Source of the DNA: Burkholderiales bacterium
GTDB taxonomy: Bacteria; Pseudomonadota; Gammaproteobacteria; Burkholderiales; SG8-41
Direction: 5' to 3'
Assembly: GCA_040081205.1 (NCBI GenBank)
Contig: JBEBHE010000002.1
Coordinates: 1-41,847, forward strand
Length of the DNA: 41,847 bases
Shown: in pieces, positions 666 through 33,699 of the stretch
Layout of the letters: each line of letters begins with the position of its first letter
Position numbering within the stretch: position 1 is the first letter of the stretch
Program-made: the position numbers and the translations under genes
Notes under the pieces: generated by a model
What the model saw: only the letters and a program-made list of their open reading frames with translations
Databases searched by the model: none
Told to the model about the DNA's origin: nothing

Positions 666-3254
666 ATGGCCGGCCCCCTGCCTGCAAAATCCGAGCAAGA
701 CGGCACGTCAAGTATGGAACGCTGGAAACAGACGCTCGATAGCGGTCGCGCTGCGCTGCGTGCAGCGTTCGAGCAAAAACCTTCCGCGCCCGATCTGTTG
801 CGTAAATACTGCGCTCTGGTCGATCAACTACTGCGCGATGTATGGCAAGTGCATGATCTACCTGCAACACTGGCGCTAGTGGCGGTCGGCGGTTACGGAC
901 GCGGGCAGCTTTTCCCCTACTCCGATATCGATTTGTTAATTCTGCTGGATCATCCCGCAGATGAAGCCCTGCAGGAGAAACTGCAACGGCTAGTTGGCGC
1001 ATGGTGGGATATCGGACTTGAAACGGGCCACAGCGTGCGCACTGTTGCCGAATGCGTGGAAATCGCAACGCAAGATATCACGGTGCAAACAAACCTGCTG
1101 GAACCACGACTGATCGTGGGTAATCGCAAGCTCTACAAACATTTCGTGGACGACACATTGGCCGTGCTCGATCCACTGTCGTTCATGCAGGCCAAGCGCC
1201 TCGAACAACAACAGCGTCACACACGCTATGAAGAGACCAACCTCGAGCCCAACGTCAAGGAGCGCGCTGGCGGCCTGCGCGACCTGCACTACATCCTGTG
1301 GATCGCGCGTGCTGCGGGTTACGGCAAAAGCTGGCGCGACCTGGTGCGGCGCGGTGTCATCATTGATGCGGAATCCCGGGATATTCAACGCCACGAACGG
1401 TTTTTGCATACGCTGCGCATACGTTTGCACTATCTCGCGGGCCGACGCGAAGACCGGCTGATATTTGATTTGCAGTCGGCGCTTGCAAAACAATTCGGCC
1501 TGATAAATCGCGCAAACCGCCTGGCGAGCGAACAATTAATGCAGCGCTACTACCAGTCTGCAAAAGCCGTTTCGCAGATTGACAGTATTGTGCAGCAAAA
1601 TCTGCGCGCGCGACTGACCGGCGTACGGTCCATCAAACTACAGCCGCTCAATGACAATTTCGGCGTGCGCAATGAAGTGCTTTCGATGCGCGGCGACGAT
1701 GTTTATGAAAAACATCCGGAGGCCATACTAGAAACGTTCCTGCTGCTGCAACAGCACCCTGAACTCAAAGGCATCGGCGCCAATACGCAACGCGCGTTAT
1801 GGCGCGCACGCAAGTTAATCGACCCGAAATATCGCCGCAATCCGCATCATCGTGAGCAATTTTTGAACATCCTGCGCAGCCCCGATCGGGTGATTCGAGA
1901 ACTGCGCCGTATGAATCAGCTAGGCATTCTCGGCAGCTACCTGCCCGCGTTTGGGAAAATCGTCGGACAGATGCAGCACGACCTGTATCACGTCTATACT
2001 GTCGATGAGCATATTCTGCGCGTCATTCGCAATCTGCGCCGCTTCGCCGTACCGGAACTAGTGCATGAATTTCCATTGTGCAGCCGGTTGCTGTCCGAAT
2101 TCGACAAACCCGATGTGCTGTACCTCGCAGGCCTGTTTCATGATATCGCCAAAGGTCGTGGCGGCGATCACTCGACGCTCGGCAAAGCAGATGCTGCGCG
2201 CTTTTGCAAGGCACACGGCTTGTCGAGCGAAGACTGCACTCTGGTCGTGTGGCTGGTCGAACAGCACCTGATGATGTCGAGCACCGCACAAAAACAGGAT
2301 CTGTCCGATCCTGACGTAATACAAGCGTTCGCGGCCAAAGTATTGACCGAGCGACGGTTAATTGCGCTGTATCTGGTAACGGTAGCGGATATCCGCGGCA
2401 CCAGCCCGAAAGTGTGGAACGCGTGGAAGGGCAAGTTACTCGAAGACCTGTTTCTGATTACGCAGCGTTTGCTCACTGGCAACATGCCAACGGTGGAAAA
2501 CAGCCAGCGCGCGCGGCAGGACGAGGCACGCAGCAAGCTGAGACTGTACGCACTGGACGATAGTGCGATCGATAAATTCTGGACTAAGCTCGATACTGCG
2601 TATTTTTTACGACACGACCCGCAGGAAATCGCATGGCACACACGCACGCTTTACTATCGTGCACAAACAGCGGATCCGATCATCAAAGCGCGTCCGTCGC
2701 GTGCCGGCGAAGGATTACAGGTCATGGTGTATGTTGTCGATCAGCCGGAATTGTTTGCACGTATTTGCGGTTTTTTTGAAGGTATCCGTTACAACATTCA
2801 CGAAGCGCGCATCTACACCGCACCCTATGGCTACGCACTCGACACATTTCAGGTGCAAGACCCGGACAATTCAAAAGTCGATTATCGCGATCTCACAGCC
2901 TACATTGAACATGAACTGGGCGAACGGTTGCGTTTGAAAGCGCCCCTGCCGGCACTGACAACCCCACGCCTCAGCCGCCAGTTACGGCATTTCCCGATAT
3001 CGCCCGAAGTCAGCATACAAAGCGATGAGCGCGGGGTTTACCAAGTGCTTTCCATTATTGCCGGCGACCGCCCTGGATTGTTGTCGCGCATCGCGCGACT
3101 ATTTCTCGCTTACGGGATCAATCTGCATACGGCCAAAATCAATACATTGGGCTCGCGCGCTGAAGATACTTTTCTGATTACCGGCGATGCGCTCAACGAC
3201 CCAAAAAAAGTCGTGCGCATGGAGAATGATTTGATCGAAACACTGAAGATTTAG
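666..3254 (+). CDS. glnD: [Protein-PII] uridylyltransferase / uridylyl-removing enzyme
   Basis: The 862-aa protein has the nucleotidyltransferase motif GGYGRGQLFPYSDIDLLILL and an HD domain (LFHDIAKGRGGDHS). Two C-terminal ACT-like repeats are present (VMVYVVDQPELFARI, LSIIAGDRPGLLSRI). The map-glnD synteny is conserved. Confidence 0.95.
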   Translation: MAGPLPAKSEQDGTSSMERWKQTLDSGRAALRAAFEQKPSAPDLLRKYCALVDQLLRDVWQVHDLPATLALVAVGGYGRGQLFPYSDIDLLILLDHPADEALQEKLQRLVGAWWDIGLETGHSVRTVAECVEIATQDITVQTNLLEPRLIVGNRKLYKHFVDDTLAVLDPLSFMQAKRLEQQQRHTRYEETNLEPNVKERAGGLRDLHYILWIARAAGYGKSWRDLVRRGVIIDAESRDIQRHERFLHTLRIRLHYLAGRREDRLIFDLQSALAKQFGLINRANRLASEQLMQRYYQSAKAVSQIDSIVQQNLRARLTGVRSIKLQPLNDNFGVRNEVLSMRGDDVYEKHPEAILETFLLLQQHPELKGIGANTQRALWRARKLIDPKYRRNPHHREQFLNILRSPDRVIRELRRMNQLGILGSYLPAFGKIVGQMQHDLYHVYTVDEHILRVIRNLRRFAVPELVHEFPLCSRLLSEFDKPDVLYLAGLFHDIAKGRGGDHSTLGKADAARFCKAHGLSSEDCTLVVWLVEQHLMMSSTAQKQDLSDPDVIQAFAAKVLTERRLIALYLVTVADIRGTSPKVWNAWKGKLLEDLFLITQRLLTGNMPTVENSQRARQDEARSKLRLYALDDSAIDKFWTKLDTAYFLRHDPQEIAWHTRTLYYRAQTADPIIKARPSRAGEGLQVMVYVVDQPELFARICGFFEGIRYNIHEARIYTAPYGYALDTFQVQDPDNSKVDYRDLTAYIEHELGERLRLKAPLPALTTPRLSRQLRHFPISPEVSIQSDERGVYQVLSIIAGDRPGLLSRIARLFLAYGINLHTAKINTLGSRAEDTFLITGDALNDPKKVVRMENDLIETLKI

Positions 3255-20699: not shown

Positions 20700-20822
20700 C
20701 AACCCCTCGCTACATCCCCAAATCGGGTGGCGAGCCTAACCCCCGGCACTTGCAGAGAATAGCTTTGGCTGCTTCCTTCCGGACCTGACCAGGTTCACTA
20801 CCATGCAATGCGGGGAGGCCCG
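20700..20822 (-). ncRNA. ffs: Signal recognition particle RNA (4.5S, small bacterial type); ends are approximate
   Basis: The minus strand reads ...GAACCUGGUCAGGUCCGGAAGGAAGCAGCCAAAGC..., which is the universally conserved SRP RNA domain IV (E. coli: ACCAGGUCAGGUCCGGAAGGAAGCAGCCAAGGC). Flanking segments CCCCGCAUUGCAU and AUGUAGCGAGGGG can pair to close the hairpin. The location upstream of dnaX is classic. Confidence 0.85.
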
Positions 20823-21061
20823 CCGTAAATCGTCAATACCGTATTGCAACTCTTAATAAATTAAATCGTAAGAATGACGTAAGTATATGCTAAATCAGGA
20901 GTTTTTACTACAGATATCAACCCCAACGACTTTACAAAATAGGCATTTAGTGTTTTTATCGCAACAATCAAAGAACAAAATCCCGTCCGCCCACGCATTA
21001 ATTAGGGTCAGCGCTCGCGGGATACGCAAATCCGTATAGTCATACCTTTCCGGAGGCATAT

Positions 21062-23029
21062 ATGTCCACGATCGAATCTGTATTAAGCGAAGAACGCCTG
21101 TTTCCACCCAGCGACGCGTTTATCAAACAGGCCAATATTTCAGGCATGGACGCCTACCGCAAGCTATGCGCCGAAGCCGAAAGTGACTTCGAAGGCTTTT
21201 GGGGCAACCTCGCGCGCAAGGAATTACTGTGGCAAAAGCCCTTCACCAAGACGCTAGATGAATCCAAAGCTCCGTTTTTCAAGTGGTTCGACGATGGCGA
21301 ATTGAATGCTTCATACAATTGCCTGGATCGGCACCTGAAAACACAACCAGACAAGATTGCGATTGTTTTCGAGGCCGATGATGGCAAGGTGAACACCATC
21401 ACCTACCGCGACTTGCATCGCGAAGTTTGCAAAGCGGCCAACGGTCTGAAGTCGCGCGGCATCCGGTTGGGCGACCGCGTCATTGTGTATATGCCAATGT
21501 CGATTGAGGCTGTGGTGTGCATGCAGGCCTGCGCACGCATCGGCGCGATTCATTCGGTAGTGTTCGGCGGCTTTTCTGCAAAAAGTTTGCAGGAACGCAT
21601 TATCGACGCTGGTGCGGTGGCGGTGCTGACCGCAGACGGGCAATTTCGTGGCGGACGTGAAATCCCGTTAAAGCCCGCTGTGGATGAAGCCCTCACGCTG
21701 GGTGGCTGCGAGTCCATTCACAGTGTCGTCGTTTACAAGCGCACCGGAACCACGGTTGCCTGGAATGCTAAACAAGATGTCTGGCTGCATGACCTGTTGA
21801 AAGACCAGTCCGAAACCTGCGAACCGACGTGGGTGAACGCGGAACATCCGCTGTTTATACTCTACACGTCCGGCTCTACTGGCAAGCCCAAAGGCATTCA
21901 ACATTCCACAGGTGGTTATTTGCTGTGGACTATCCTGACAATGAAGTGGACGTTTGACTACAAGCCGAGCGATGTGTTCTGGTGTACAGCGGATGTCGGC
22001 TGGGTGACCGGACATTCCTACGTTTGCTACGGCCCGCTGGCGTGCGGTGCGACCGAAGTTATTTTTGAAGGCGTGCCGGTTTACCCGGATGCCGGCCGTT
22101 TCTGGAAAATGATTCAGGACCACAAAGTCAGTGTGTTTTATACCGCACCGACGGCGATTCGTTCGCTGATCAAAGCCGGCGGCGATCTGCCCAAAAAATA
22201 TGACCTGAAAAGTCTTCGTATCCTGGGCACCGTGGGCGAGCCGATTAATCCCGAAGCGTGGATGTGGTACCACGAAACGGTTGGCGGCAGCCGTTGCCCG
22301 ATTGTCGATACCTGGTGGCAAACCGAAACCGGCGGACACATGATTACGCCGCTGCCGGGCGCCACGGCCACAAAACCGGGTTCAGCAACTTTTCCCCTTC
22401 CTGGCGTTATTGCCGATATTGTCGATGAAACCGGCCAATCGGTCGGCAGAGGCAAAGGCGGTATTCTGGTTATCAAAAAACCGTGGCCGTCGATGGTGCG
22501 CACGATTTGGGGCGATCCGGAGCGTTTCAAAAAAACCTACTACCCGGAAGATTTTCAGGGCAAGTATTACCTCGCCGGCGACGGCGCAACCTACGATTCC
22601 GAAGGCTACATTCGAATCATGGGGCGCATTGACGACGTGCTGAATGTATCGGGACATCGCCTTGGCACCATGGAAATCGAGTCCGCGCTCGTCGCCTATA
22701 AAGAACTTGTCGCCGAAGCGGCCGTAGTCGGACGCCCGGATGAACTTACTGGTGAAGCGATTTGCGCGTTCGTCGTGTTAAAGCGCTCGCGCCCCACCGG
22801 CGACGAGGCAAAGAAAATCGTCAAGGAATTGCAGGATTGGGTAGCCAAGGAAATTGGCCCCATCGCAAAGCCTCGCGACATTCGCTTCGGGGATAATCTG
22901 CCCAAGACACGTTCCGGAAAAATCATGCGTCGCCTCTTGCGCTCTATCGCCAAAGGCGAGGAAATTACGCAGGATGTTTCCACGCTGGAGAATCCGGCGA
23001 TCCTGGATCAGTTAAAACAACCGTTGTGA
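21062..23029 (+). CDS. acs: Acetyl-CoA synthetase (AMP-forming)
   Basis: The 655-aa protein has the AMP-binding motif [19 protein letters not shown] and YYLAGDGA. The C-terminus has [14 protein letters not shown] with the acetylatable Lys context. A GGAGG SD lies 7 nt upstream of the ATG. Confidence 0.97.
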
Positions 23030-23244
23030 GTCAGTCGAAGCCCATAGGCAACGAACAACGCGGGCAGCGCCTCGCGGCGTTGTTCCTGCTGGGTTGCTTG
23101 CTGTTCAACTACCCGCTGCTGCAATTGTTTGCGCGCGATGGCACCGTTCTGGGTATGCCGCTGCTCTATTGCTATGCTTTCGGCGCATGGGCCGTGTTAA
23201 TCGGGTTGATGGCGCTGGTGGTTGAACGCCGCGACCGCGACTAG
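23026..23244 (+). CDS. Small two-TM membrane protein resembling the DUF4212 symporter small subunit
   Basis: The 72-aa protein has two hydrophobic helices. A GTG start overlaps the acs stop (GTGA), and the gene ends 9 nt before the sensor kinase. It shares the pattern (F/Y)AR ... LG(M/F)PL ... Y ... G with the DUF4212 protein at 30269-30535. Confidence 0.6.
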
Positions 23245-23253
23245 GAAATCATT

Positions 23254-26046
23254 GTGCTAACCGGCGGCATTATCGTCGTCGCCTCGTTTGCCTACGTCGC
23301 CCTGCTGTTCGCCATCGCGGCTTACGGCGACAAGCGCGCCGATGCCGGGCGCAGCCTGATCGCCAATCCATACATTTACGCGCTGTCTTTGGCGGTGTAC
23401 TGCACGTCGTGGACCTTCTACGGCAGTGTCGGCCGTGCCGCGACATCGGGCATCGGCTTCCTGCCAATCTATCTCGGCCCGACATTGATGGCCGCGCTGT
23501 GGTGGTTTCTGCTGCTAAAAATGATACGCATCAGCAAGGCCAATCGCATCACCTCCATCGCCGACTTCGTTGCGTCGCGCTACGGCAAAAGCCAATTGCT
23601 CGGCGGACTGGTCACCATCATCGCGGTTATCGGCATCATTCCGTATATCGCGCTGCAATTAAAAGCGATCTCCACCAGTTTCTCCATCATCCTACACTAC
23701 CCGGGCGTCGCGATGCCTGAAAAACTCGGCGCGCAATTGTTCATCGGCGACAACACCTTTTATATCGCGATGATGCTGGCCGCGTTCACCATTCTGTTCG
23801 GCACGCGCCACCTGGATGCGACGGAGCGCCACGAAGGATTGGTCGCGGCGATTGCGTTTGAATCAGTAGTAAAACTGGTTGCCTTCATCGCCGTCGGTTT
23901 GTTTGTCACATACGGCATGTACAATGGCTTCACGGATATTTTTCAGCGCGCGCGCGAAAATCCGCAATTGCACGCGTTAATGGCCCAAGGCGGCGAATCC
24001 GGCAGTTACACGTCGTGGGCATCGCTGACGCTGCTGTCAATGTTTGCCATTCTGTTTTTGCCCCGCCAGTTTCAGGTTGCCGTGGTGGAAAATGTCGATG
24101 AGCGGCATTTAAACAAAGCGATCTGGCTGTTTCCGCTGTATTTACTCGTGATTAACATCTTTGTGCTGCCCATTGCGCTGGGCGGCCTGCTGCGGTTTCC
24201 CTCGGGCGGCGTCGATGCCGACACTTTTATGCTGACGCTGCCGATAGCCGAACAGCAGCCGTGGATCGCGTTACTCGCTTTCATCGGCGGCCTGTCCGCA
24301 GCGACGGGCATGGTGATCGTGGAAACCATCGCGCTATCAACGATGGTATGCAACGATCTGGTGATGCCGGTGCTGCTACGTTTACGCTGGCTGCGGCTTA
24401 CTGAACGGCGCGATTTGTCGCGCCTGCTACTGGGCATCCGACGCGGTGCAATTGTCGCAATACTGATGCTGGGCTATGTTTATTTTCATCTCGCCGGAGA
24501 GGCGTATGCTCTTGTTTCTATTGGATTAATATCGTTCTCTGCGGTAGCGCAATTTGCGCCCGCTATCATTGGCGGCCTGTTCTGGAAAGGCGGCAACCGG
24601 CTGGGGGCGATCTGTGGTTTGAGCGCGGGATTTCTGGTTTGGCTCTACACCCTGTTGCTGCCCTCCTTCGCAAAATCCGGCTGGCTACCCATTACATTTT
24701 TGTCGCAAGGCTTCGCGGGCATTGAACTGCTCAAACCGCAGCAACTTTTCGGATTGCAAGGCCTTGATGAAATTTCGCATTGTTTATTCTGGAGCTTGCT
24801 CGCCAATATCGGACTTTACGTTGCGATTTCTATGCTCCGCCGTCCCGACGCGTCGGAGCATAGACAGGCCGTGCTGTTCGTCGATGCCAATCGGCAGTCG
24901 CCCGCAGCGGGTTCGCGATTCTGGCGTGGCAGCGCGTCCATCAACGATTTGCTTGCGTTGTTGGGCCGTTTTCTCGGCCCGGCGCGCGCGCACGACGCCA
25001 TGACAGAATACGCGCGGCACCGCAGCGTGCAGACCATCGAAGCGATACCAGCAGACGCCGATACGGTTCATCATGCCGAGTCGCTGCTGGCCGGCGCTAT
25101 CGGCAGCGCCAGTGCAAGGGTCATGATGGCATCCGTTGTAGATGAAGAGCCGCTCGGCATTGACGAAGTTATGCACATCATCGACGAAGCATCGCAAGTG
25201 CTGGCCTACAGCCGGCAGCTTGAACGTCAATCACGCGAACTCGAAGCGGCGACCAACGACTTACGCAACGCCAACTCACGCTTAAAAGAACTTGACAGAC
25301 TGAAGGACGATTTCATTTCCACCGTCACGCATGAGTTGCGCACACCGCTGACCTCCATTCGCGCGTTTACCGAAATACTTCGCGACAATCCAAATTTAGC
25401 GCAAGTGCAGCGTGAGAATTTTCTGGGTATTGTCATTCGGGAATCCGAGCGCCTTACACGCCTTATCAATCAGGTGCTGGATCTGTCGAAAATCGAGTCC
25501 GGCAACGCGGAATGGCAATCGATTCAATTCGACATGCGCGATGTAATCAACGAATCCGCCTCTGCCGTTGGGCAGTTATTCCGCGACAGCGGCGTTACTT
25601 TGGCCATTCAACTTCCTGACGATGCGCCGGAAATCGTTGCTGACCGTGACCGCGTGATGCAAGTGATGTTGAACCTGCTGTCCAATGCAGCGAAATTCTG
25701 CGAAGCCGGCAAAGGCCAGGTTCGCGTCACACTCGCTTGCGAGCCCCATGCACTGCACGTGAATGTCATAGACAACGGCATTGGCATCAGCGCCGAGGAT
25801 CAGGCCGTGATATTCGACAAATTCCGGCAGGCCGGCGATACGCTGACGCAAAAGCCCAAAGGCAGCGGACTGGGTCTCGCGATCTCGCGCCAGATCATTG
25901 AGTTCCTTGGCGGCCGGCTCTGGGTTACCAGCCGCTTTGGTGACGGCGCAACCTTTTCGTTCACGCTTCCCATCAGCGGCGGGCACGTAGAACGACCATC
26001 ACAAATGAATGCGACCGAGTATGCCCAGGAAAATTCTCATCGTTGA
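23254..26046 (+). CDS. Sensor histidine kinase with an N-terminal sodium/solute symporter (SSS/SLC5) domain and STAC-like linker (CrbS/CbrA-like architecture)
   Basis: The 930-aa protein starts with ~520 aa of SSS-type TM helices (ITSIADFVASRYGKS, IPYIALQLKAIS). A STAC-like segment follows (AESLLAGAIGSASARVMMASV), then a coiled coil. The HisKA H-box is FISTVTHELRTPLTSI (His codon 25330-25332), and the HATPase has N, G1 and G2 boxes (LLSNAAKF, DNGIGI, GSGLGLAISRQI). I could recognise no PAS domain and no fused receiver. Confidence 0.9.
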   Translation: MLTGGIIVVASFAYVALLFAIAAYGDKRADAGRSLIANPYIYALSLAVYCTSWTFYGSVGRAATSGIGFLPIYLGPTLMAALWWFLLLKMIRISKANRITSIADFVASRYGKSQLLGGLVTIIAVIGIIPYIALQLKAISTSFSIILHYPGVAMPEKLGAQLFIGDNTFYIAMMLAAFTILFGTRHLDATERHEGLVAAIAFESVVKLVAFIAVGLFVTYGMYNGFTDIFQRARENPQLHALMAQGGESGSYTSWASLTLLSMFAILFLPRQFQVAVVENVDERHLNKAIWLFPLYLLVINIFVLPIALGGLLRFPSGGVDADTFMLTLPIAEQQPWIALLAFIGGLSAATGMVIVETIALSTMVCNDLVMPVLLRLRWLRLTERRDLSRLLLGIRRGAIVAILMLGYVYFHLAGEAYALVSIGLISFSAVAQFAPAIIGGLFWKGGNRLGAICGLSAGFLVWLYTLLLPSFAKSGWLPITFLSQGFAGIELLKPQQLFGLQGLDEISHCLFWSLLANIGLYVAISMLRRPDASEHRQAVLFVDANRQSPAAGSRFWRGSASINDLLALLGRFLGPARAHDAMTEYARHRSVQTIEAIPADADTVHHAESLLAGAIGSASARVMMASVVDEEPLGIDEVMHIIDEASQVLAYSRQLERQSRELEAATNDLRNANSRLKELDRLKDDFISTVTHELRTPLTSIRAFTEILRDNPNLAQVQRENFLGIVIRESERLTRLINQVLDLSKIESGNAEWQSIQFDMRDVINESASAVGQLFRDSGVTLAIQLPDDAPEIVADRDRVMQVMLNLLSNAAKFCEAGKGQVRVTLACEPHALHVNVIDNGIGISAEDQAVIFDKFRQAGDTLTQKPKGSGLGLAISRQIIEFLGGRLWVTSRFGDGATFSFTLPISGGHVERPSQMNATEYAQENSHR

Positions 26047-26389
26047 GGATGATCATAATATATTGATTTCATTAGATTTTTTAATGAGATCTGAAAACTA
26101 CGATACGCGCACGGCCGGTACCGGGAATGGAGCGCTTGCAATCGTTGGAGAATTCATCCCCGATTTGATACTGCTGGATGTGATGCTGCCTATGATGAAT
26201 GGCTTTGAGGTATGTCAAACCCTTCGTGCCAATCCAGCATTAAATGCACTGAAGATCGTTATGCTGACTGCCAAAGGCCGTGAATCCGAAATCGCAGAAG
26301 GCATGGCATCAGGAGCGGATGCCTACATCACCAAACCCTTTGCGACGCGCGACCTTGTGAAAATCGTAAAACAACTGCTGGGAGACTAG
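26021..26389 (+). CDS. Stand-alone receiver (CheY-like single-domain response regulator)
   Basis: The motifs are (M)PRKILIVEDD, phospho-acceptor context LILLDVMLP, conserved T (MLTAKG) and K (YITKPF). There is no output domain. It overlaps the kinase stop by 26 nt, or 38 nt if the ATG at 26009 is used. Confidence 0.85.
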   Translation: MPRKILIVEDDHNILISLDFLMRSENYDTRTAGTGNGALAIVGEFIPDLILLDVMLPMMNGFEVCQTLRANPALNALKIVMLTAKGRESEIAEGMASGADAYITKPFATRDLVKIVKQLLGD

Positions 26390-27904
26390 ATGCGGTCGCG
26401 TTTTGCGGCAGTGTGGGCGGTTTGTACAGGGCTGATCCTGTGTGGTGCGGCAAGCGTCTTGTTTGTATTGCATGGCGCCCTGGAACCGGCTGATCGCCTC
26501 ACGCTGCTTCGCATGCTCGCGGCAAACGTGACAGTACTCGTAATCCTGCTGATTTTTACGTGCGTGATTTCTGCATGGATAGCGAATTGGGTCATGCAAC
26601 ACTATGTCAAGCCATTGCACCGTTACGCTGACGGCATTGGATTGATCGCTGCTGGAAATCCGGCGTACCGGGTAGAAGCGGCGCCACCGGCGGAATTGCG
26701 GATCGTCGCTACCGCCATCAATGCATTGGCCGCTCGCCACGAAGCCACCTTGCGCGACGTTACCGCCCGTGTTCATGAAGCGCAGTCCAATTTGGAATTG
26801 GAGAAAAGCCATCTCGCCACGCTGATGTCGGAACTCGCGCAGAGTGTTGTGGTTTGCAATGCGCAAGGCGAAATCCTCCTCTATAACGAAAAAGCCCGCC
26901 ACTTGTTTTCATCCGTTCATGAAAGCACCGATGAAAAAGCCATGCCTTTTCTCGGGCTGGGTCGATCCATTTATGCATTAGCGGACCACGGTGCCGTACG
27001 TGCCGGTCTTGACGAACTGCGGCAACGACTGGCATCCAATGTGCCGAACCCGGTCGCTGATTTCACAATGCAGCTCGCAAACGGCAAAATCGCCCATGCG
27101 CGCATGGCACCGGCCCGGCATCAGGCTACCGCTTCCCCAACACCTGCGACCGAAATCGATGGTTTTGTATTATTGCTGACTGCCGTCAACGCCGAACATG
27201 AAGCACGGCCCTCCCGCCATTCGGAAACATTCGCGCCAACGGGTCGTCCCGTCTATTACGACTTCGACCTTTTTCATCAGGCCGGACAGACCAAGGAAAT
27301 AGAAGACCGCCCGCTATCGAAGATCGTCTACACCGCGTTCGACACCGAGACGACAGGACTTGAGCCGTCCTCTGGAGATGAAATCATCGCCATAGGCGCA
27401 ATCAGACTCGTCAATGGCCGGCTGCTGCATCAGGAACAATTCTCAAAACTTATTGATCCCCGTCGCCCGCTTTCGCCGGAATCCATTGCCATCCACGGCA
27501 TTACACCGGAGATGCTGCGCGGAAAGCCCACCATAGAGAAAGTGATCCCCGCTTTTTATCAATTCTGTGAAGACACCGTATTGCTGGGGCACAATGCGGC
27601 ATTTGATATGCGTTTTCTCGAGATAAAACAGCGGCAGACGGGAATAAAATTCACGCAGCCAGTGCTCGACACTCTGCTACTTTCTGCCGTGTTGCACGGC
27701 ACCTTGCAGGCCCATGGTCTTGATGCGATCGCGTTGCGCCTCGGCGTGGCTGTAGTGGATCGCCACAGCGCCATCGGGGACGCCGTAACCACCGCGCAGA
27801 TTTTCCTTAAACTGCTGCCCCTGCTTTCGCAGCGCGGCATTGTCACGCTTAGACAGGCTCGCGAAGCGTCCGCGACTACGTCCTATGCCCGACTTCGATA
27901 CTGA
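26390..27904 (+). CDS. Membrane-anchored HAMP-PAS protein with a C-terminal DEDDh (DnaQ/PolIII-epsilon-like) 3'-5' exonuclease domain
   Basis: The 504-aa protein has two N-terminal TM helices with a very short loop. A HAMP-like segment follows (KPLHRYADGIGLIAAGNPAYRV...AINALAARHEA), then a PAS-like segment (LMSELAQSVVVCNAQGEILLYNEKARHLF). The exonuclease motifs are ExoI FDTETTGL, ExoII GHNAAFDMRFL and ExoIII HSAIGDAVTTA. The ATG abuts the receiver stop (TAGATG). Confidence 0.85.
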   Translation: MRSRFAAVWAVCTGLILCGAASVLFVLHGALEPADRLTLLRMLAANVTVLVILLIFTCVISAWIANWVMQHYVKPLHRYADGIGLIAAGNPAYRVEAAPPAELRIVATAINALAARHEATLRDVTARVHEAQSNLELEKSHLATLMSELAQSVVVCNAQGEILLYNEKARHLFSSVHESTDEKAMPFLGLGRSIYALADHGAVRAGLDELRQRLASNVPNPVADFTMQLANGKIAHARMAPARHQATASPTPATEIDGFVLLLTAVNAEHEARPSRHSETFAPTGRPVYYDFDLFHQAGQTKEIEDRPLSKIVYTAFDTETTGLEPSSGDEIIAIGAIRLVNGRLLHQEQFSKLIDPRRPLSPESIAIHGITPEMLRGKPTIEKVIPAFYQFCEDTVLLGHNAAFDMRFLEIKQRQTGIKFTQPVLDTLLLSAVLHGTLQAHGLDAIALRLGVAVVDRHSAIGDAVTTAQIFLKLLPLLSQRGIVTLRQAREASATTSYARLRY

Positions 27905-29300
27905 ACAGATAGATCCGCCGCTCAGCGGGCTGATGCGCGCCGCGCCGGTATCTTGCCTGCCGGATACGCGTGTGGAAACCGTATTGAGCATCATGAAAGA
28001 CAAGCGTATTGGCTCCATGATCGTCACCGACCCTCAAATGAGACCCATCGGCATTTTGACGCTGCGTGATGTCCTGGACCGGATCGCACTTGCGCCCGGC
28101 GCTTTGCAAATGCCCATTGAGCGCGTGATGTCGCGTCACCCCTTGTGCATCCCGGTTGACAGCAGTGCCTATCAGGCATCGCTTGCCATGATTCGGCACG
28201 GCGTCAATCACATCATCGTGGTTAAAAACGAACTGCTTGCGGGACTCGTTTCGGCCCGGGATCTATTTGGCCTGCAACATAGCAGCGTAAAAACCCTATC
28301 CACAGCCATCCGCAGTGCGCACGATCTTGGCGCTATTGAAGCATTCGGTCGCGACATTGGCGTTCTTTCGCGCAAAATGCTTGCTCAGGGCATCGCAACA
28401 GGGCCGCTTTGCGCTTTTATCGCCTCACTCAACGATCTGCTGACACAACGCATCGTGGAAATGGAGTTCCGCGACGTGTCCATTCCCTATTGCTGGATAC
28501 TCATGGGCAGCGAAGGGCGCTCTGAACAAACGCTGGTCACCGATCAAGACAACGGCCTGATCTTTTCGCCGGCGGACGGCAGCGATCCCGAAGTAGCGCG
28601 CCAGGAATTACTGACGGTTGCGCGCCGCATCAACCTGGCCCTTGATCGTGCCGGTTATCAGCTCTGCCCCGGCGATATCATGGCCGGGAATCCGCGATGG
28701 TGTCTGACCTTGAACGAGTGGCGCAGCCGGTTTCAGCATTGGATCGCCTCCGGTGATCCTCAGGCAATATTACACGGCATGATATTTTTCGACCTCAGAC
28801 CACTGCACGGTGAAACCATGCTTGCGCAGCACCTGCGGGATTGGATAACGGAGAATGCGCGGCACAGCCAGCGATTCCTGCACCTGATGGCTCAAGGCGC
28901 GTTGAAGAATGGCGCCCCCCTTGGATTGCTGGGACGATTCAAACTGGATGCCGGCGGTTACCTCGACCTTAAAATCAACGGAACAACCCTGTTCACAGAC
29001 GCAGGCCGCATCTTTGCACTGGCGGCCGGGATTGACGAAACCAACACGGAACGCAGATTGCGCAGAGCAGGCACTGCGCTCAATATTCCGCTGGATGAAA
29101 TTGAAGCATGGATTGCGGCGTACTACTGCTTGCAAGGACTCAGGCTTCGAATGCAGGCAGCGGCGTTGGCGAGCGGAGGCTCAGCCGACAACCGATTGGC
29201 GCCCAGGCAGTTGCATGCGTTTGATCGCGAGGTTCTCACCCTGGCATTTCATCAAGCCACTAAGTTGCAGAAACGACTCCGCATGGAATACAGTGCTTGA
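27885..29300 (+). CDS. CBS-pair / DUF294-type putative nucleotidyltransferase (GlnD-like Pol-beta fold) with a DUF294_C-type helical domain
   Basis: Two CBS modules are present (VETVLSIMKDKRIGSMIV...GILTLRDVL; ASLAMIRHGVNHIIV...GLVSARDL). The NTase motif GSEGRSEQTLVTDQDNGLIF (nt 28506-28565) parallels the glnD motif in this same window. I call the start at ATG 27885, a 20-nt overlap with the exonuclease gene; the ORF is open from 27840. Confidence 0.85.
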   Translation: MPDFDTEQIDPPLSGLMRAAPVSCLPDTRVETVLSIMKDKRIGSMIVTDPQMRPIGILTLRDVLDRIALAPGALQMPIERVMSRHPLCIPVDSSAYQASLAMIRHGVNHIIVVKNELLAGLVSARDLFGLQHSSVKTLSTAIRSAHDLGAIEAFGRDIGVLSRKMLAQGIATGPLCAFIASLNDLLTQRIVEMEFRDVSIPYCWILMGSEGRSEQTLVTDQDNGLIFSPADGSDPEVARQELLTVARRINLALDRAGYQLCPGDIMAGNPRWCLTLNEWRSRFQHWIASGDPQAILHGMIFFDLRPLHGETMLAQHLRDWITENARHSQRFLHLMAQGALKNGAPLGLLGRFKLDAGGYLDLKINGTTLFTDAGRIFALAAGIDETNTERRLRRAGTALNIPLDEIEAWIAAYYCLQGLRLRMQAAALASGGSADNRLAPRQLHAFDREVLTLAFHQATKLQKRLRMEYSA

Positions 29301-29330: not shown

Positions 29331-30002
29331 CTAGGGAATTTCCTGCTCAAGCAAGTAGCCGCGCCCATAGATAGTACGCACCGCCACGCCGCTGCCGTCC
29401 AGCTTCTTCCTGAGGCGATGCACGTAGACCTCGATAGCGTTATGCGTCACCTCTTTGTCATAGCTGTAGAGTAATTCGACCAATTGCTCCTTGCTGACTA
29501 CACGCCCAAAGCGTCTCAACAAAATTTCCAGTACGCCGGATTCGTGCAGCGAAAGCGGCAGCGCTTTTCCTTGTACACTAGCGAGCCGTGACACCGTATC
29601 GAAGGCTAAATTTCCATATTGCAAGGTCGGAGATGCATCTCCTGCACCGCGACGCAACAGCGCGCGCACGCGCGCCTTCAGTTCATCCTGGCTAAATGGT
29701 TTGACCAGATAGTCGTCCGCACCAAGGTCGAGACCGATGACCTTTTCTTCAGACTGTTCACGCCCCGACAATATCAGCACAGGCAGCGTGGTATTACGCT
29801 TGCGCAGCCGGCGCAGCACCTCAAAGCCATCCAGTTTGGGTAGCCCCAAGTCAAGGATCAGCAGGCCAAAGCCATCACCTTTGAGTGCTTCATCCGCAGC
29901 AAGCCCATGCTCTACATGGTCAACCGCATAGCCCGCTTGGCTCAGCGAAAAACGCAACGCCTCTGACAGCGCCGCATCATCCTCCGCAATCAGAATTCGC
30001 AA
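29331..30002 (-). CDS. OmpR/PhoB-family winged-helix response regulator
   Basis: The receiver has (M)RILIAEDD, LLILDLGLP and YLVKPF. The winged-helix output has VEVYVHRLRKKL and RTIYGRGYLL. I call the start at TTG 30000-30002, preceded by a GGGGGAG SD; the ORF is open to 30047. Confidence 0.9.
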   Translation of the reverse strand: MRILIAEDDAALSEALRFSLSQAGYAVDHVEHGLAADEALKGDGFGLLILDLGLPKLDGFEVLRRLRKRNTTLPVLILSGREQSEEKVIGLDLGADDYLVKPFSQDELKARVRALLRRGAGDASPTLQYGNLAFDTVSRLASVQGKALPLSLHESGVLEILLRRFGRVVSKEQLVELLYSYDKEVTHNAIEVYVHRLRKKLDGSGVAVRTIYGRGYLLEQEIP

Positions 30003-30068
30003 TCGACTCCCCCAGAATCTTACCGCAAGAATGCTGTGCCGCAACAAAACTGCGGATTGAAAAATAAC

Positions 30069-30268: not shown

Positions 30269-30535
30269 GTGCAACCTAGCGCAAAACACCAGGAATACTG
30301 GCGAAAAAATCTGGTCATTACGGCGATATTGCTTGTGATTTGGTTTGTTGTCACTTTCATTGAAGGGTGGTACGCCCGTGAACTGAACAGCATGACCTTC
30401 CTCGGATTTCCTCTCGGCTTCTACATGTCCGCGCAAGGCTCGCTAGCGATTTACGTGATCATTATTGGTTTCTACGCGATGTTCATGAAGAAACTCGACA
30501 AAGAGTACGGCGTTGACGAAGGAGACCTCGAATGA
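30269..30535 (+). CDS. DUF4212-type small subunit of a sodium:solute symporter
   Basis: The 88-aa two-TM protein has a GTG start preceded by an AAGGAGG SD. Its stop overlaps the ATG of the large SSS subunit (ATGA), the characteristic small/large subunit pairing of the VC_2705-type symporter family. Confidence 0.85.
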   Translation: MQPSAKHQEYWRKNLVITAILLVIWFVVTFIEGWYARELNSMTFLGFPLGFYMSAQGSLAIYVIIIGFYAMFMKKLDKEYGVDEGDLE

Positions 30536-32607
30536 GCCAAGCCACCAGTCACAGCGCATTTAACTCGCAGCTGAAAAAGTATTATACGTTCTACACTGGC
30601 GGATTCATCGCGTTTCTGATTTTCCTGGCCATTGCCGAGCAAATGGGCATGTCCAGGGCGATGATCGGCTACGTTTTTCTTGCCGCGACCATAGGCCTGT
30701 ATGCCGGCATCGGCATCATGAGCCGTACTGCGGAGGTATCGGAGTATTACGTCGCGGGCCGCCGGGTTCCAGCGTTCTTCAACGGCATGGCGACCGGCGC
30801 GGACTGGATGAGCGCGGCATCCTTCATCGGCATGGCGGGCACGCTGTATCTGTCGGGATTTGATGGCTTGGCCTTCGTCATGGGCTGGACCGGCGGCTAC
30901 TGTCTGGTAGCGTTTTTGCTGGCCCCCTATCTGCGCAAATTTGGGCAATTCACTATTCCCGACTTTCTGGGCGCGCGTTATGGCGGCAATATCATCCGCT
31001 CCATCGGCGTGATTGCCGCCATCACCTGTTCGTTTGTTTATGTGGTGGCGCAAATCTACGGCGTGGGCCTCATTACCAGTCGCTTCACGGGGTTGGAGTT
31101 CGGCGTAGGCGTGTATGTCGGCCTCGCAGGCATCCTCGTTTGCTCGATGCTCGGCGGCATGAAAGCCGTCACGTGGACACAGGTGGCACAGTACATCATT
31201 CTGATCATCGCCTATATGACGCCGGTGGTGTGGTTGGGCATCAAGCATACCGGCATCCCCGTGCCGCAAGTCGCTTACGGCCCTGTGCTGCAAAAGGTGG
31301 GCGACCTTGAAAAGAAAATCACCGCTGACCCGAAAGAGATCGAAGTTCGCAATATCTTCAAGGATCGCGCCGCTACCGCCAACGCAGGTTTGAAAGATCC
31401 GGCCAAGGTGTACGGTGAAGGCAAGGCCAAGCTTGAGAAAGCGGTCGCTGACGCCAAGGGCGTGGAGCCTGCGGATACGGCCAAAGTAGCCGCAGCGGAA
31501 AAGGCGCTGGCCGCGTATCCGAAAGACGAAGCAGCGGCAAAGGCACAGTGGAACAAGGACAAAGGCCTCGCTGCGCGTGCCGCGCCGCCAAGACCGCATG
31601 CCGATCCTTATCCGGGCAAGGACGAAGACGCACGCTTCACCGCCAAACTCAATTTTCTTGGCATAGTGTTTTGCATGATGTTCGGTACCGCAGCATTGCC
31701 GCATATCCTGATGCGTTACTACACCACGCCCAGCGTGCAGCAGGCGCGTGTGTCGGTATTCTGGTCACTGTTTTTCATCTTCCTGCTCTATTTCACCGCC
31801 CCTTGCCTCGCCGTGCTGGCGAAGTTCGATGTCTACAGCAACTTGGTGGGCAGTAGTTTTTCGTCGTTACCTGCATGGGCGGCGGCGTGGGCAAAAGTTG
31901 ATCCAACTCTGCTGAGTATTGTTGACATCAACATGGACGGCATAGTGCAACTCGCGGAAATTGTGATTGGCGGCGACTTGATTGTGTTGGCAACGCCCGA
32001 AATCGCCGGCCTGCCTTATGTGGTATCCGGGCTGGTTGCTGCCGGTGGCCTTGCTGCCGCGCTTTCTACTGCAGACGGGCTGCTGCTAACCATCGCCAAC
32101 GCGCTGTCGCACGATCTCTACTACAAGATGATTGACCCGCAAGCCAGTACCAAAACACGCGTGACCATCTCTAAAGTGCTGTTGATCTTTGTTGCGGGCG
32201 TTGCCGCATTCGTCACATCACTCAAACCTGGTGACATTCTGTTCCTGGTGGGCGCGGCGTTCTCGCTGGCGGCTTCGGCATTCTTCCCGCCGCTGGTCAT
32301 GGGCGTATTCTGGAAACGCGCCAACAAGTGGGGTGCTATCGTTGGAATGCTGGCCGGATTAGGCGTGTGCATGTATTACATGATGCGCACCTATCCGTTC
32401 TTCACCAATATGGGCGTACCGAAGATGGATCTCTGGTTTGGCCTTAATCCGATCTCGGCAGGTGTGTTTGGTTTGCCGATTGGCCTGCTGACCATCTTCA
32501 TCGTGAGCCTGCTGACGGCACCGCCCGATGCGGAAACGCAAAAGTTGGTCGAACACGTGCGTTACCCGAATCTGGTTGGCGACACTTACCAATCGCAAGC
32601 GACCTAG
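30532..32607 (+). CDS. Sodium:solute symporter large subunit (SSS family, VC_2705-like; probable monocarboxylate/acetate-type transporter)
   Basis: The 691-aa multi-TM protein has SSS hallmarks (YYVAGRRVPAFFNGMATGADWMSAASFIG, TIPDFLGARYG). It contains a ~119-aa hydrophilic Ala/Lys/Glu-rich insertion. The substrate is not determinable from sequence. Confidence 0.9.
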   Translation: MSQATSHSAFNSQLKKYYTFYTGGFIAFLIFLAIAEQMGMSRAMIGYVFLAATIGLYAGIGIMSRTAEVSEYYVAGRRVPAFFNGMATGADWMSAASFIGMAGTLYLSGFDGLAFVMGWTGGYCLVAFLLAPYLRKFGQFTIPDFLGARYGGNIIRSIGVIAAITCSFVYVVAQIYGVGLITSRFTGLEFGVGVYVGLAGILVCSMLGGMKAVTWTQVAQYIILIIAYMTPVVWLGIKHTGIPVPQVAYGPVLQKVGDLEKKITADPKEIEVRNIFKDRAATANAGLKDPAKVYGEGKAKLEKAVADAKGVEPADTAKVAAAEKALAAYPKDEAAAKAQWNKDKGLAARAAPPRPHADPYPGKDEDARFTAKLNFLGIVFCMMFGTAALPHILMRYYTTPSVQQARVSVFWSLFFIFLLYFTAPCLAVLAKFDVYSNLVGSSFSSLPAWAAAWAKVDPTLLSIVDINMDGIVQLAEIVIGGDLIVLATPEIAGLPYVVSGLVAAGGLAAALSTADGLLLTIANALSHDLYYKMIDPQASTKTRVTISKVLLIFVAGVAAFVTSLKPGDILFLVGAAFSLAASAFFPPLVMGVFWKRANKWGAIVGMLAGLGVCMYYMMRTYPFFTNMGVPKMDLWFGLNPISAGVFGLPIGLLTIFIVSLLTAPPDAETQKLVEHVRYPNLVGDTYQSQAT

Positions 32608-32628
32608 CACCTTGTGCGCGTAACTGAC

Positions 32629-32656
32629 AAAGCCCGCTTCGGCGGGCTTTGTTTTT
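32629..32656 (+). terminator. Rho-independent terminator of the symporter operon
   Basis: AAAGCCCGC-TTCG-GCGGGCTTT is a perfect 9-bp stem with a tetraloop, followed by GTTTTT. It lies 21 nt after the stop codon. Confidence 0.85.
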
Positions 32657-33607: not shown

Positions 33608-33699
33608 GGAGAGATGGATGAGTGGTTTAAGTCGCACGCCTGGAAAGCGTGTGTACGGTGAAAGCCGTACCGTGGGTTCGAATCCCACTCTCTCCGCCA
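33608..33699 (+). tRNA. tRNA-Ser (anticodon GGA), with encoded CCA
   Basis: The acceptor stem pairs GGAGAGA with TCTCTCC. The anticodon arm is CACGC-CUGGAAA-GCGUG, the long variable arm is GUACGGUGAAAGCCGUAC and the T-arm is GTGGG-TTCGAAT-CCCAC. It closely parallels E. coli tRNA-Ser(GGA). Confidence 0.95.

Follow-up and report, generated by a model that had tools for sequence, protein, structure and literature searches.

A CBS-DUF294 nucleotidyltransferase gene and its HAMP-PAS-DEDDh exonuclease partner in an acs-linked gene string of a Burkholderiales bacterium

The stretch of DNA analysed here (hereafter the window) comprises 41,847 nt of contig JBEBHE010000002.1 from a Burkholderiales bacterium. 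The open reading frame (ORF) at 27885-29300 (+ strand) encodes a nucleotidyltransferase (NTase) with the domain order CBS-CBS-DUF294-DUF294_C, and the gene directly upstream encodes a DEDDh exonuclease. The ORF is securely assigned to the DUF294/COG2905 family, as a variant of the module that combines such an NTase with a DnaQ-like exonuclease. It is also well supported that the two genes are the betaproteobacterial form of this conserved module, which in Pseudomonas is part of the CrbS/R (MxtR/ErdR) acetate/short-chain-acid regulon. The joint chemistry of the two proteins is a more tentative matter. With a probability of about 0.35, they may act antagonistically under the control of their sensors: the NTase would put an inhibitory nucleotidyl mark on a protein, and the exonuclease would take it off again.

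The nucleotidyltransferase and its active site

Translation of the NTase gene from the ATG at 27885 yields a protein of 471 amino acids (aa), whose AlphaFold2 (AF2) model reached a pLDDT of 87.5 and a pTM of 0.85. An alternative in-frame TTG at 27840 would add just 15 residues and was judged an unlikely start. The ATG was adopted because about 120 homologs (55-67% identity, 466-484 aa), which align from residue 1, agree with it in length and N-terminus. In Pfam searches, two CBS stretches (E 2.6e-21, 76.1 bits) were followed by DUF294 (PF03445; E 2.4e-42, 144.5 bits versus a cut-off of 21), the NTase core of polymerase (Pol)-beta fold at about aa 159-293 (28359-28763, +). After this core comes DUF294_C (PF10335; E 9.7e-34, 116.7 bits versus a cut-off of 22.5), a helical 'substrate-binding' domain at about aa 329-469 (28869-29291, +). 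Pfam gave no match to a cyclic-nucleotide (cNMP)-binding domain within the 471 aa, the DNA upstream being that of the exonuclease gene, and recognised no RNA-binding domain in the NTase. GlnD_UR_UTase, HD and ACT domains were likewise absent, which distinguishes the protein from GlnD proper. The layout proposed in a first-pass annotation of the window, with two CBS modules, a DUF294_C domain behind the NTase core and no cNMP domain, was thus confirmed.

The putative active site lies in the motif GSEGRSEQTLVTDQDNGLIF (28506-28565, +), with G208-S209 as nucleoside triphosphate (NTP) loop and D220-x-D222 as metal ligands. Its position had been given exactly in the first-pass annotation, as had that of a parallel motif at nt 888-947 within the bona fide GlnD of the window (666-3254, 1275 bits). 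The signature used there, G-[SG]-x9-13-D-x-D, is present; taken alone it is weak evidence, as the loose pattern occurs three times in the 18,186 residues of the window's long stop-free stretches, once by chance within a kinase (at 24181). The stricter GlnD/GlnE-type form GxxGR...[ST]DxD is found in the window in GlnD and the DUF294 NTase only. Assignment of the catalytic site rests on the Pfam score and on residue invariance rather than on the loose pattern. In 42 homologs of 31-56% identity, residues G208, S209, R212, E214, Q221, D222, D303, R305, K363, R375, R391 and R420 are invariant, the last four being located in DUF294_C, and D220 is kept in at least 90%. D303, a candidate third carboxylate, belongs to an FFDLR motif (codons of D303-L304-R305 at 28791-28799, +).

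Alignment of the family profile with the N-terminus of the window's GlnD by hhalign gave an E value of 0.019 at a probability of 2.5% and is taken as supporting evidence only. In this alignment GSEGR pairs with GGYGR, TDQD with SDID and FFDxR with LLEPR, so that the motif is in register with that of GlnD and D303 and R305 face the E and R of LLEPR. The same GlnD N-terminus matched the DUF294 Pfam model weakly (E 0.0085). In the AF2 model, judged by secondary structure alone, the GS loop follows strand 202-206, DxD opens strand 220-227 and D303 stands directly before strand 305-309. When the model was compared with the PDB by Foldseek, its N-terminal third matched CBS proteins, and the non-CBS matches among the top 50 were limited to GlnE (3k7d, E 1.2e-6; 1v4a, E 7.5e-6) and DrrA/SidM (6yx5, E 2.6e-6, TMt 0.63). 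No other NTase class, and in particular no CCA-adding enzyme, poly(A) polymerase or MenT-like enzyme, appeared among these 50. Sequence searches of the PDB, both with the single sequence and with a profile, returned CBS proteins only, and no solved DUF294 structure was found by them. GlnE and DrrA act on protein tyrosines, to which AMP is added or from which it is removed. The earlier claim of an intact GlnD-like active site agrees with the Pfam score, the invariance of the residues in 42 homologs and the GlnE/DrrA fold matches, and the reading of the protein as a predicted GlnD/GlnE-type enzyme of Pol-beta fold with its catalytic residues intact is supported.

The CBS pair (Bateman module, about aa 15-130; 27927-28274, +) retains the ribose-binding motif G-h-h-[ST]-x-x-D in both halves, as GILTLRD (G56 to D62) and GLVSARD (G120 to D126). 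Residues G56, T59, D62, G120, S123 and D126 are invariant in 113 homologs, and in Foldseek comparisons the pair superposes on AMP-bound CBS pairs (2rif, root-mean-square deviation 1.6 Å, TMt 0.80). Numerous top structural matches of the CBS pair are, by their PDB titles, AcuB bound to AMP, ADP, ATP or Ap4A, a parallel that holds at the generic level of the CBS fold only. AcuB is the CBS protein of the Bacillus acuABC operon, which governs acetylation of acetyl-CoA synthetase (Acs).

The exonuclease partner and conservation of the pair

The upstream gene (26390-27904, +) encodes a predicted membrane-anchored exonuclease of 504 aa with two transmembrane (TM) segments and the order TM-TM-HAMP-PAS-DEDDh (RNase_T PF00929, E 1.3e-36; AF2 pLDDT 81.7). 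Two hydrophobic segments are located at the N-terminus. According to AF2 secondary structure, the sensor part (26390-27184, +) consists of a TM hairpin (aa 2-65), a HAMP/coiled-coil region up to aa 147 and a PAS fold (aa 152-265), which a disordered linker separates from the DEDDh domain (aa 305-500; 27302-27889, +). Close homologs exceed the Pfam thresholds for HAMP (32.7 bits, P0273) and PAS (34.5 bits, P0275). The catalytic residues D318, E320, D406, H459 and D464 are invariant in 86 homologs, and the nearest solved domains are those of PolC, DinG, Pol III epsilon and ExoX (2p1j, E 2.8e-33; 9qrn, Foldseek E 1.5e-13). Longer exonuclease homologs of 710-725 aa (in the set P0272-P0389) carry an additional module of about 210 aa which is not present in the window copy. 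This module aligns with the DHp-CA part of the window's histidine kinase (hhalign probability 88%, E 3e-6) and has Glu in place of the phospho-acceptor His; judged by this alignment, the longer class would be a degenerate kinase-like scaffold with a nuclease output.

Since the stop codon of the exonuclease gene (TGA) is at 27902-27904 and the NTase gene starts at 27885, the two genes overlap by 20 nt, as stated in the first-pass annotation. To deduce stoichiometric co-expression from this overlap was an overreach; the close juxtaposition suggests co-transcription and possibly translational coupling.

Loci with related pairs were collected by an alignment-based scan, a scan with a single protein having given two loci only. 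With 1,489 clusters at 50% identity (E <1e-30), the DUF294 family is a large one; it occurs in Pseudomonadota, Bacteroidota and Bacillota, and is encoded nearly always beside a DnaQ-like exonuclease. Its NTases fall into length classes of about 470-500 aa and about 620-650 aa. The longer class has an N-terminal cNMP domain and is the majority form, and the short form devoid of this domain was found in about 10 of 82 loci. Among proteobacterial-type loci with adequate flanks, the DEDDh exonuclease gene adjoins the NTase gene on the same strand in 65 of 73 and is located within about 5 kb in 69 of 73. In Bacillaceae (L086-L148; Rossellomorea, Pontibacillus and others), it directly follows the NTase gene in all 59 loci, with gaps of -4 to +6 nt that are mostly overlaps of 1 or 4 nt and a single exception of -35. 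Spacing in the window-like loci ranges from -20 to +21 nt. Adjacency at near-zero spacing is kept across all three phyla.

Two arrangements recur. In the common form (61 loci), a cNMP-bearing NTase gene precedes that of a short exonuclease, and genes for a DUF4212 protein and a sodium:solute symporter (SSS) very often come next. In the form seen in the window (9-10 loci), a HAMP-PAS exonuclease gene precedes that of an NTase without cNMP domain, and both stand behind genes for an SLC5-like kinase and a receiver. Sensor domains are thus complementary and shuffled between the partners, the cNMP-bearing NTase going with the short exonuclease and the cNMP-less NTase with the HAMP-PAS exonuclease, as expected of output enzymes of signalling. 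An SSS symporter gene was found within 6 kb in 31 of 54 loci, an acs gene within 8 kb in 11, and a gene for SSS, acs or SLC5 kinase nearby in 39. Annotated records show the same company: DUF485, ActP, the cNMP/CBS protein and a 3'-5' exonuclease in P. aeruginosa, and DUF4212, SSS, DUF294, a hypothetical gene and an exonuclease in Ruegeria. The neighbours of the pair in Bacillaceae are unrelated to transport (a sigma-54 activator, aspartokinase, proline genes and a dynamin-like GTPase), so that the pair itself is the conserved unit and the acetate/monocarboxylate context a proteobacterial theme. In Geobacillus, Anoxybacillus, Paenibacillus and Brevibacillus, amtB has been reported in an operon with a DUF294 gene and dnaQ, in most rows without glnK (PMC3412718, Table 1 footnote d), which hints that the pair may accompany further transporters. 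An amtB neighbour was not seen in the 59 Bacillaceae loci, where the pair is present with the unrelated neighbours named above, and the published link was not confirmed in them.

Two deviating arrangements were observed. On the megaplasmid of Ruegeria sp. TM1040 (L085, 7391-9351), the exonuclease has 479 aa, of which the N-terminal 270 or so are without Pfam match, and a hypothetical gene of 172 aa separates it from the NTase gene. In Dechloromonas and other Rhodocyclaceae (L063, 4236-9428; L069, L070, L071, L076, L079), the gene of a long exonuclease is followed by two NTase genes, the first encoding a sensor-less DUF294 plus DUF294_C protein (346 aa) and the second a cNMP-CBS-DUF294 protein (643 aa). 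An assignment to anti-phage defence (CBASS and similar systems) was considered and rejected because PADLOC gave no match for the NTase; for the exonuclease it returned generic DEDDh models only.

The pair is not new: in the domains of its proteins and the pairing of its genes it matches PP_0354/PP_0353 of P. putida KT2440 and PA3233/PA3232 of P. aeruginosa, both of them direct targets of the acetate system CrbS/R (MxtR/ErdR). PFLU5625 of P. fluorescens, PP_0354/PP_0353 and PA3232-PA3235 have been reported as targets of this system (PMC5715377, PMC8402216, PMC9927547, PMC9765439). The Pseudomonas proteins share with those of the window the core of two CBS stretches, DUF294 and DUF294_C beside an RNase_T/DEDDh exonuclease, and also the link to acs, to SSS-type acetate/pyruvate symporters and to an SLC5-type sensor kinase. 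They differ in four respects: (i) the window NTase is devoid of the N-terminal cNMP-binding domain; (ii) gene order is reversed in the window, the exonuclease coming first; (iii) the window exonuclease has a TM-HAMP-PAS sensor, whereas the Pseudomonas enzyme of about 210 aa has none; (iv) the window pair is in one predicted operon with the kinase and a stand-alone receiver, whereas the Pseudomonas pair is a distant member of the regulon.

Possible joint chemistry of the two enzymes

The genetics published for the Pseudomonas pair bear on its mode of action. On pyruvate, deletion of the exonuclease gene PP_0353 impaired P. putida in the same way as deletion of actP-I or yjcH, whereas deletion of the NTase gene PP_0354 did not (PMC9927547). 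PP_0353 also resembled actP-I in low-acetate fitness assays. With 20 mM acetate, neither the NTase nor the exonuclease mutant was impaired, though acsA-I was essential there. In fitness data of Price et al. from Shewanella amazonensis and P. stutzeri, one gene of the pair and the DUF4212/SSS symporter were cofit, and the authors guessed that the former is needed for expression of the latter. The fact that the exonuclease mutant phenocopies a transporter mutant and the NTase mutant does not favours an antagonistic pair which would tune monocarboxylate uptake. This asymmetry, the homology and fold shared with GlnD, GlnE and DrrA, and the signalling-type architecture of both proteins are the grounds on which this reading is preferred. 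Nucleotidylylation of a protein upon a cNMP or adenylate signal has been speculated upon before (Sepulveda and Lupas, PMC5715377; bioRxiv 10.64898/2026.09.07.749794).

The antagonistic pair might work as follows: (i) binding of adenosyl nucleotides to the CBS pair would set the activity of the NTase, an enzyme of the GlnD/GlnE/DrrA class; (ii) the NTase would move a nucleoside monophosphate (NMP) onto a hydroxyl group of a protein of monocarboxylate uptake or activation, and this mark would lower the activity of the target; (iii) the HAMP-PAS-DEDDh enzyme would cleave the phosphodiester, by which 5'-NMP would be released and target activity restored. The SSS-type symporter system would be the likeliest target, with Acs or a signalling protein as less likely ones. 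The sign of the effects, presumed negative for the NTase and positive for the exonuclease, is taken from the published mutant phenotypes, and the identity of the acceptor is the weakest step of the scheme. Snake-venom phosphodiesterase, a 3'-5' exonuclease that releases 5'-NMPs, strips AMP and UMP from modified tyrosines, which makes it plausible that a DEDDh enzyme could free 5'-NMP from a tyrosyl phosphodiester. The writer/eraser pair proposed in the first-pass annotation is upheld in part: the evolutionary tie of the NTase to an intact DEDDh exonuclease stands and the P. putida genetics fit antagonism, but for the mark itself and its reversal by the exonuclease no support was obtained.

Several observations weigh against an antagonistic pair acting on a protein. 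The likeness of the NTase to GlnD and GlnE is remote (hhalign E 0.019; Foldseek TM 0.42-0.63). The exonuclease domain is closest to DNA proofreaders (PolC, epsilon, DinG, ExoX), and nucleic-acid 3' ends are therefore indicated as its natural substrate. In Bacillaceae, the pair is a stand-alone two-gene unit without acetate genes nearby, and its unrelated neighbours imply that the substrate may be generic rather than a neighbouring transporter. Enzymes of the DEDD fold are not known to remove nucleotidyl groups from proteins. In the searchable literature, we found no report of nucleotidyl transfer or any other enzymatic activity of DUF294 proteins and no biochemical test of the pair. Finally, both P. 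putida mutants were mildly impaired on propionate, which is not a simple antagonistic pattern.

The proofreader-like exonuclease and the stand-alone pair of Bacillaceae keep two nucleic-acid or nucleotide-based explanations alive. According to the first, which we regard as unlikely, the two enzymes would write and erase RNA or DNA 3' ends: the NTase would add untemplated nucleotides, for instance to tRNA, small RNA or an mRNA such as the symporter transcript, and the exonuclease would trim them, resulting in post-transcriptional control of uptake genes. Such a system might be likened to the CCA-adding enzyme with RNase T, or to tRNA nucleotidylation of the MenT type opposed by an exoribonuclease. 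It would suit a typical DnaQ/PolC-type 3'-5' exonuclease with a complete catalytic set, an NTase rich in invariant Arg and Lys, and a pair that stands alone in Bacillaceae, where a universal substrate such as RNA ends would be fitting; mRNA degradation has also been speculated for the pair by Henriquez et al. On the other side, it is protein AMPylators that the NTase most resembles in structure, with none of the RNA-modifying classes named above in the Foldseek top 50, and the NTase has no recognisable RNA-binding domain; moreover, no Rfam element was found near the operon.

Somewhat more doubtful still is a nucleotide second messenger. The NTase would make a linear or cyclic (oligo)nucleotide or a conjugate according to adenylate or cNMP status, the exonuclease would degrade it, and the signal would inhibit monocarboxylate uptake. 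Both proteins do look like signalling enzymes, with cNMP, CBS, HAMP, PAS and a degenerate kinase module fused in shuffled combinations to catalytic outputs, and the pair is self-contained across phyla. The Pol-beta fold includes OAS, cGAS and the CD-NTases, and the DEDDh enzyme Orn degrades dinucleotides. Nevertheless, the NTase resembles neither CD-NTases nor defence systems (no PADLOC match) and has GlnE and DrrA as its fold neighbours, the exonuclease is nearer to DNA proofreaders than to Orn or RNase T, and no obvious receptor is encoded nearby.

Acs had been put forward in the first-pass annotation as a target of nucleotidylylation. Such a role of Acs, or of the receiver or the kinase, would have a counterpart in the acetylation of Acs lysines by cNMP-GNAT or AcuA enzymes, but is improbable. 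The location of acs at the head of the same packed gene string, its presence within 8 kb in 11 of 54 loci, the resemblance of the CBS pair to AcuB of the acu operon and the impairment of both P. putida mutants on propionate, which AcsA-I may activate, would be in line with it. Yet neither mutant shows a phenotype on 20 mM acetate, where acsA-I is essential; the exonuclease phenotype tracks actP-I on pyruvate, where Acs is irrelevant; and SSS symporter genes accompany the pair in more loci (31 of 54) than acs does. As the mutant phenotypes follow the transporter and not Acs, the latter is a weaker candidate than an SSS-type transporter. That the two proteins share no chemistry at all is very improbable; the exonuclease would then serve DNA repair or housekeeping, and the NTase would be a regulator, inactive or unrelated to it, in the same operon. 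Mild mutant phenotypes and the frequent annotation of the exonuclease as DNA polymerase III epsilon speak for this, but adjacency at near-zero spacing is conserved in three phyla, the catalytic residues of both proteins are invariant and the sensor contents of the partners are complementary.

If the antagonistic pair is extended to its widest form, the DnaQ-fold exonuclease would serve solely to erase a GlnE-class mark from a protein or an RNA end, with both partners sensor-gated (the writer by CBS or cNMP domains, the eraser by membrane-bound HAMP-PAS), and the whole would be a hitherto unrecognised, phylum-spanning reversible switch on Na+/solute symporters; alternatively, the pair would make and destroy a nucleotide messenger. 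We consider this wide form a speculation with rather low odds. The nucleotidylylation idea is largely anticipated in print, and the novelty of the window is that of an architectural variant, not of a kind of system. Distinctive are an NTase without cNMP domain, an exonuclease with TM-HAMP-PAS sensor, and the inclusion of both in an operon with acs, a small ORF, an SLC5 kinase and a receiver. The pseudomonad pair ranks with the genes that depend most strongly on the acetate-switch two-component system, by which carbon use and host interaction are affected. Once the chemistry of the pair is solved, thousands of genes that now carry the labels 'CBS domain protein' or 'DNA polymerase III epsilon' would gain a function; the result could also be an eraser of nucleotidyl marks of a new kind, or a new level at which short-chain-acid uptake is controlled. 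The window variant is a useful entry point, as its sensors are allotted to the partners in another way and one operon holds the whole signalling chain of small membrane ORF, SLC5 kinase, receiver, exonuclease and NTase.

Gene surroundings and relation to known systems

The pair closes a packed gene string in the order acs, a 72-aa ORF, SLC5-like kinase, receiver, exonuclease and NTase, with junctions of -4, +9, -38, 0 and -20 nt. The string is headed by acs (21062-23029, +; NCBIfam acetate--CoA ligase, 1048 bits). The apparent gap of 224 nt between acs and the kinase gene holds the small ORF (23026-23244, +), whose GTG start overlaps the acs stop codon. It was found in the ORF listing and through homologs, encodes two predicted TM segments and matches DUF3311 weakly. 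Homologs of this ORF are located immediately upstream of an SLC5 kinase gene in 18 related loci, and by analogy with CbrX, DUF4212 or DUF485 its product may be a small subunit of the transporter-like sensor. The kinase (23254-26046, +) combines an SLC5-like membrane domain with a histidine kinase (HisKA, HATPase_c) in an architecture of CrbS/CbrA type that is not hybrid. Its N-terminal 600 aa matched TIGR03648 (E 2.9e-8) and the symporter of the window (BLASTP, E 8e-6). The gene of the stand-alone receiver (26009-26389, +; Response_reg, E 6.5e-27) shares its first 38 nt with the kinase gene and ends directly before the start codon of the exonuclease gene.

Convergent with the NTase gene is that of an OmpR/TctD-type response regulator (29331-30047, -; Response_reg, Trans_reg_C), which scored 228 bits with the TctD model, below the cut-off of the latter. 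Further downstream are the genes of a DUF4212 small subunit (30269-30535, +; TIGR03647) and a VC_2705-family sodium:solute symporter (30532-32607, +; TIGR03648, 772 bits). The genes for Acs, the SLC5-like kinase, DUF4212 and the VC_2705-family symporter are all within 7 kb. The layout of non-hybrid SLC5 kinase, stand-alone receiver and convergent OmpR/TctD-type regulator is repeated in three other loci (L003, L004, L060). In contrast to CrbS/R, the receiver is encoded separately, behind a kinase of non-hybrid type, and the only DNA-binding regulator nearby is of OmpR/TctD type and not the LuxR-type CrbR of Vibrio and Pseudomonas.

With GlnD (PII uridylyltransferase), GlnE (glutamine synthetase adenylyltransferase) and DrrA/SidM of Legionella, the window NTase shares the Pol-beta core, the extended motif G-x-x-G-R...[ST]-D-x-D and a helical domain behind it, and by analogy with GlnD and GlnE it might share the logic of reversible nucleotidylylation under metabolite sensing. 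The HD and ACT domains of GlnD, the second NTase domain of GlnE and the GEF and P4M domains of DrrA are absent; sensing would instead be by the CBS pair, and the candidate eraser is a separate DEDDh protein. The C-terminal domain of the partner has the full D-E-D-D-H set and the fold of the DnaQ/PolC-type exonucleases (Pol III epsilon, PolC, DinG, ExoX). Unlike these, it follows a membrane anchor, HAMP and PAS in one polypeptide, is unlinked to a polymerase or helicase, and is tied genetically to NTase and transport genes. Sensor systems that modify Acs are the mycobacterial cNMP-GNAT acetyltransferase and AcuA/AcuB(CBS)/AcuC of Bacillus. They may be compared with the window pair in that cNMP or CBS sensors are coupled to a protein-modifying enzyme in a setting of acetate activation, the CBS pair being like adenylate-bound AcuB; they differ in that acetylation stands against presumed nucleotidylylation and the catalytic domains are unrelated.

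A search for a regulator-binding repeat shared by the regions upstream of acs, kinase and symporter yielded two AT-rich 12-mers with one mismatch, which were unconvincing. Rfam identified in the whole window a small SRP (signal recognition particle) RNA and one tRNA only. A strong terminator is located at 32626-32653, 3' of the symporter gene; otherwise the scan for promoters and terminators was uninformative. The bacterial small SRP RNA (20726-20824, -; 79.8 bits) lies just upstream of the acs promoter region, and the 89-nt tRNA (33608-33696, +) lies downstream of the symporter cluster.

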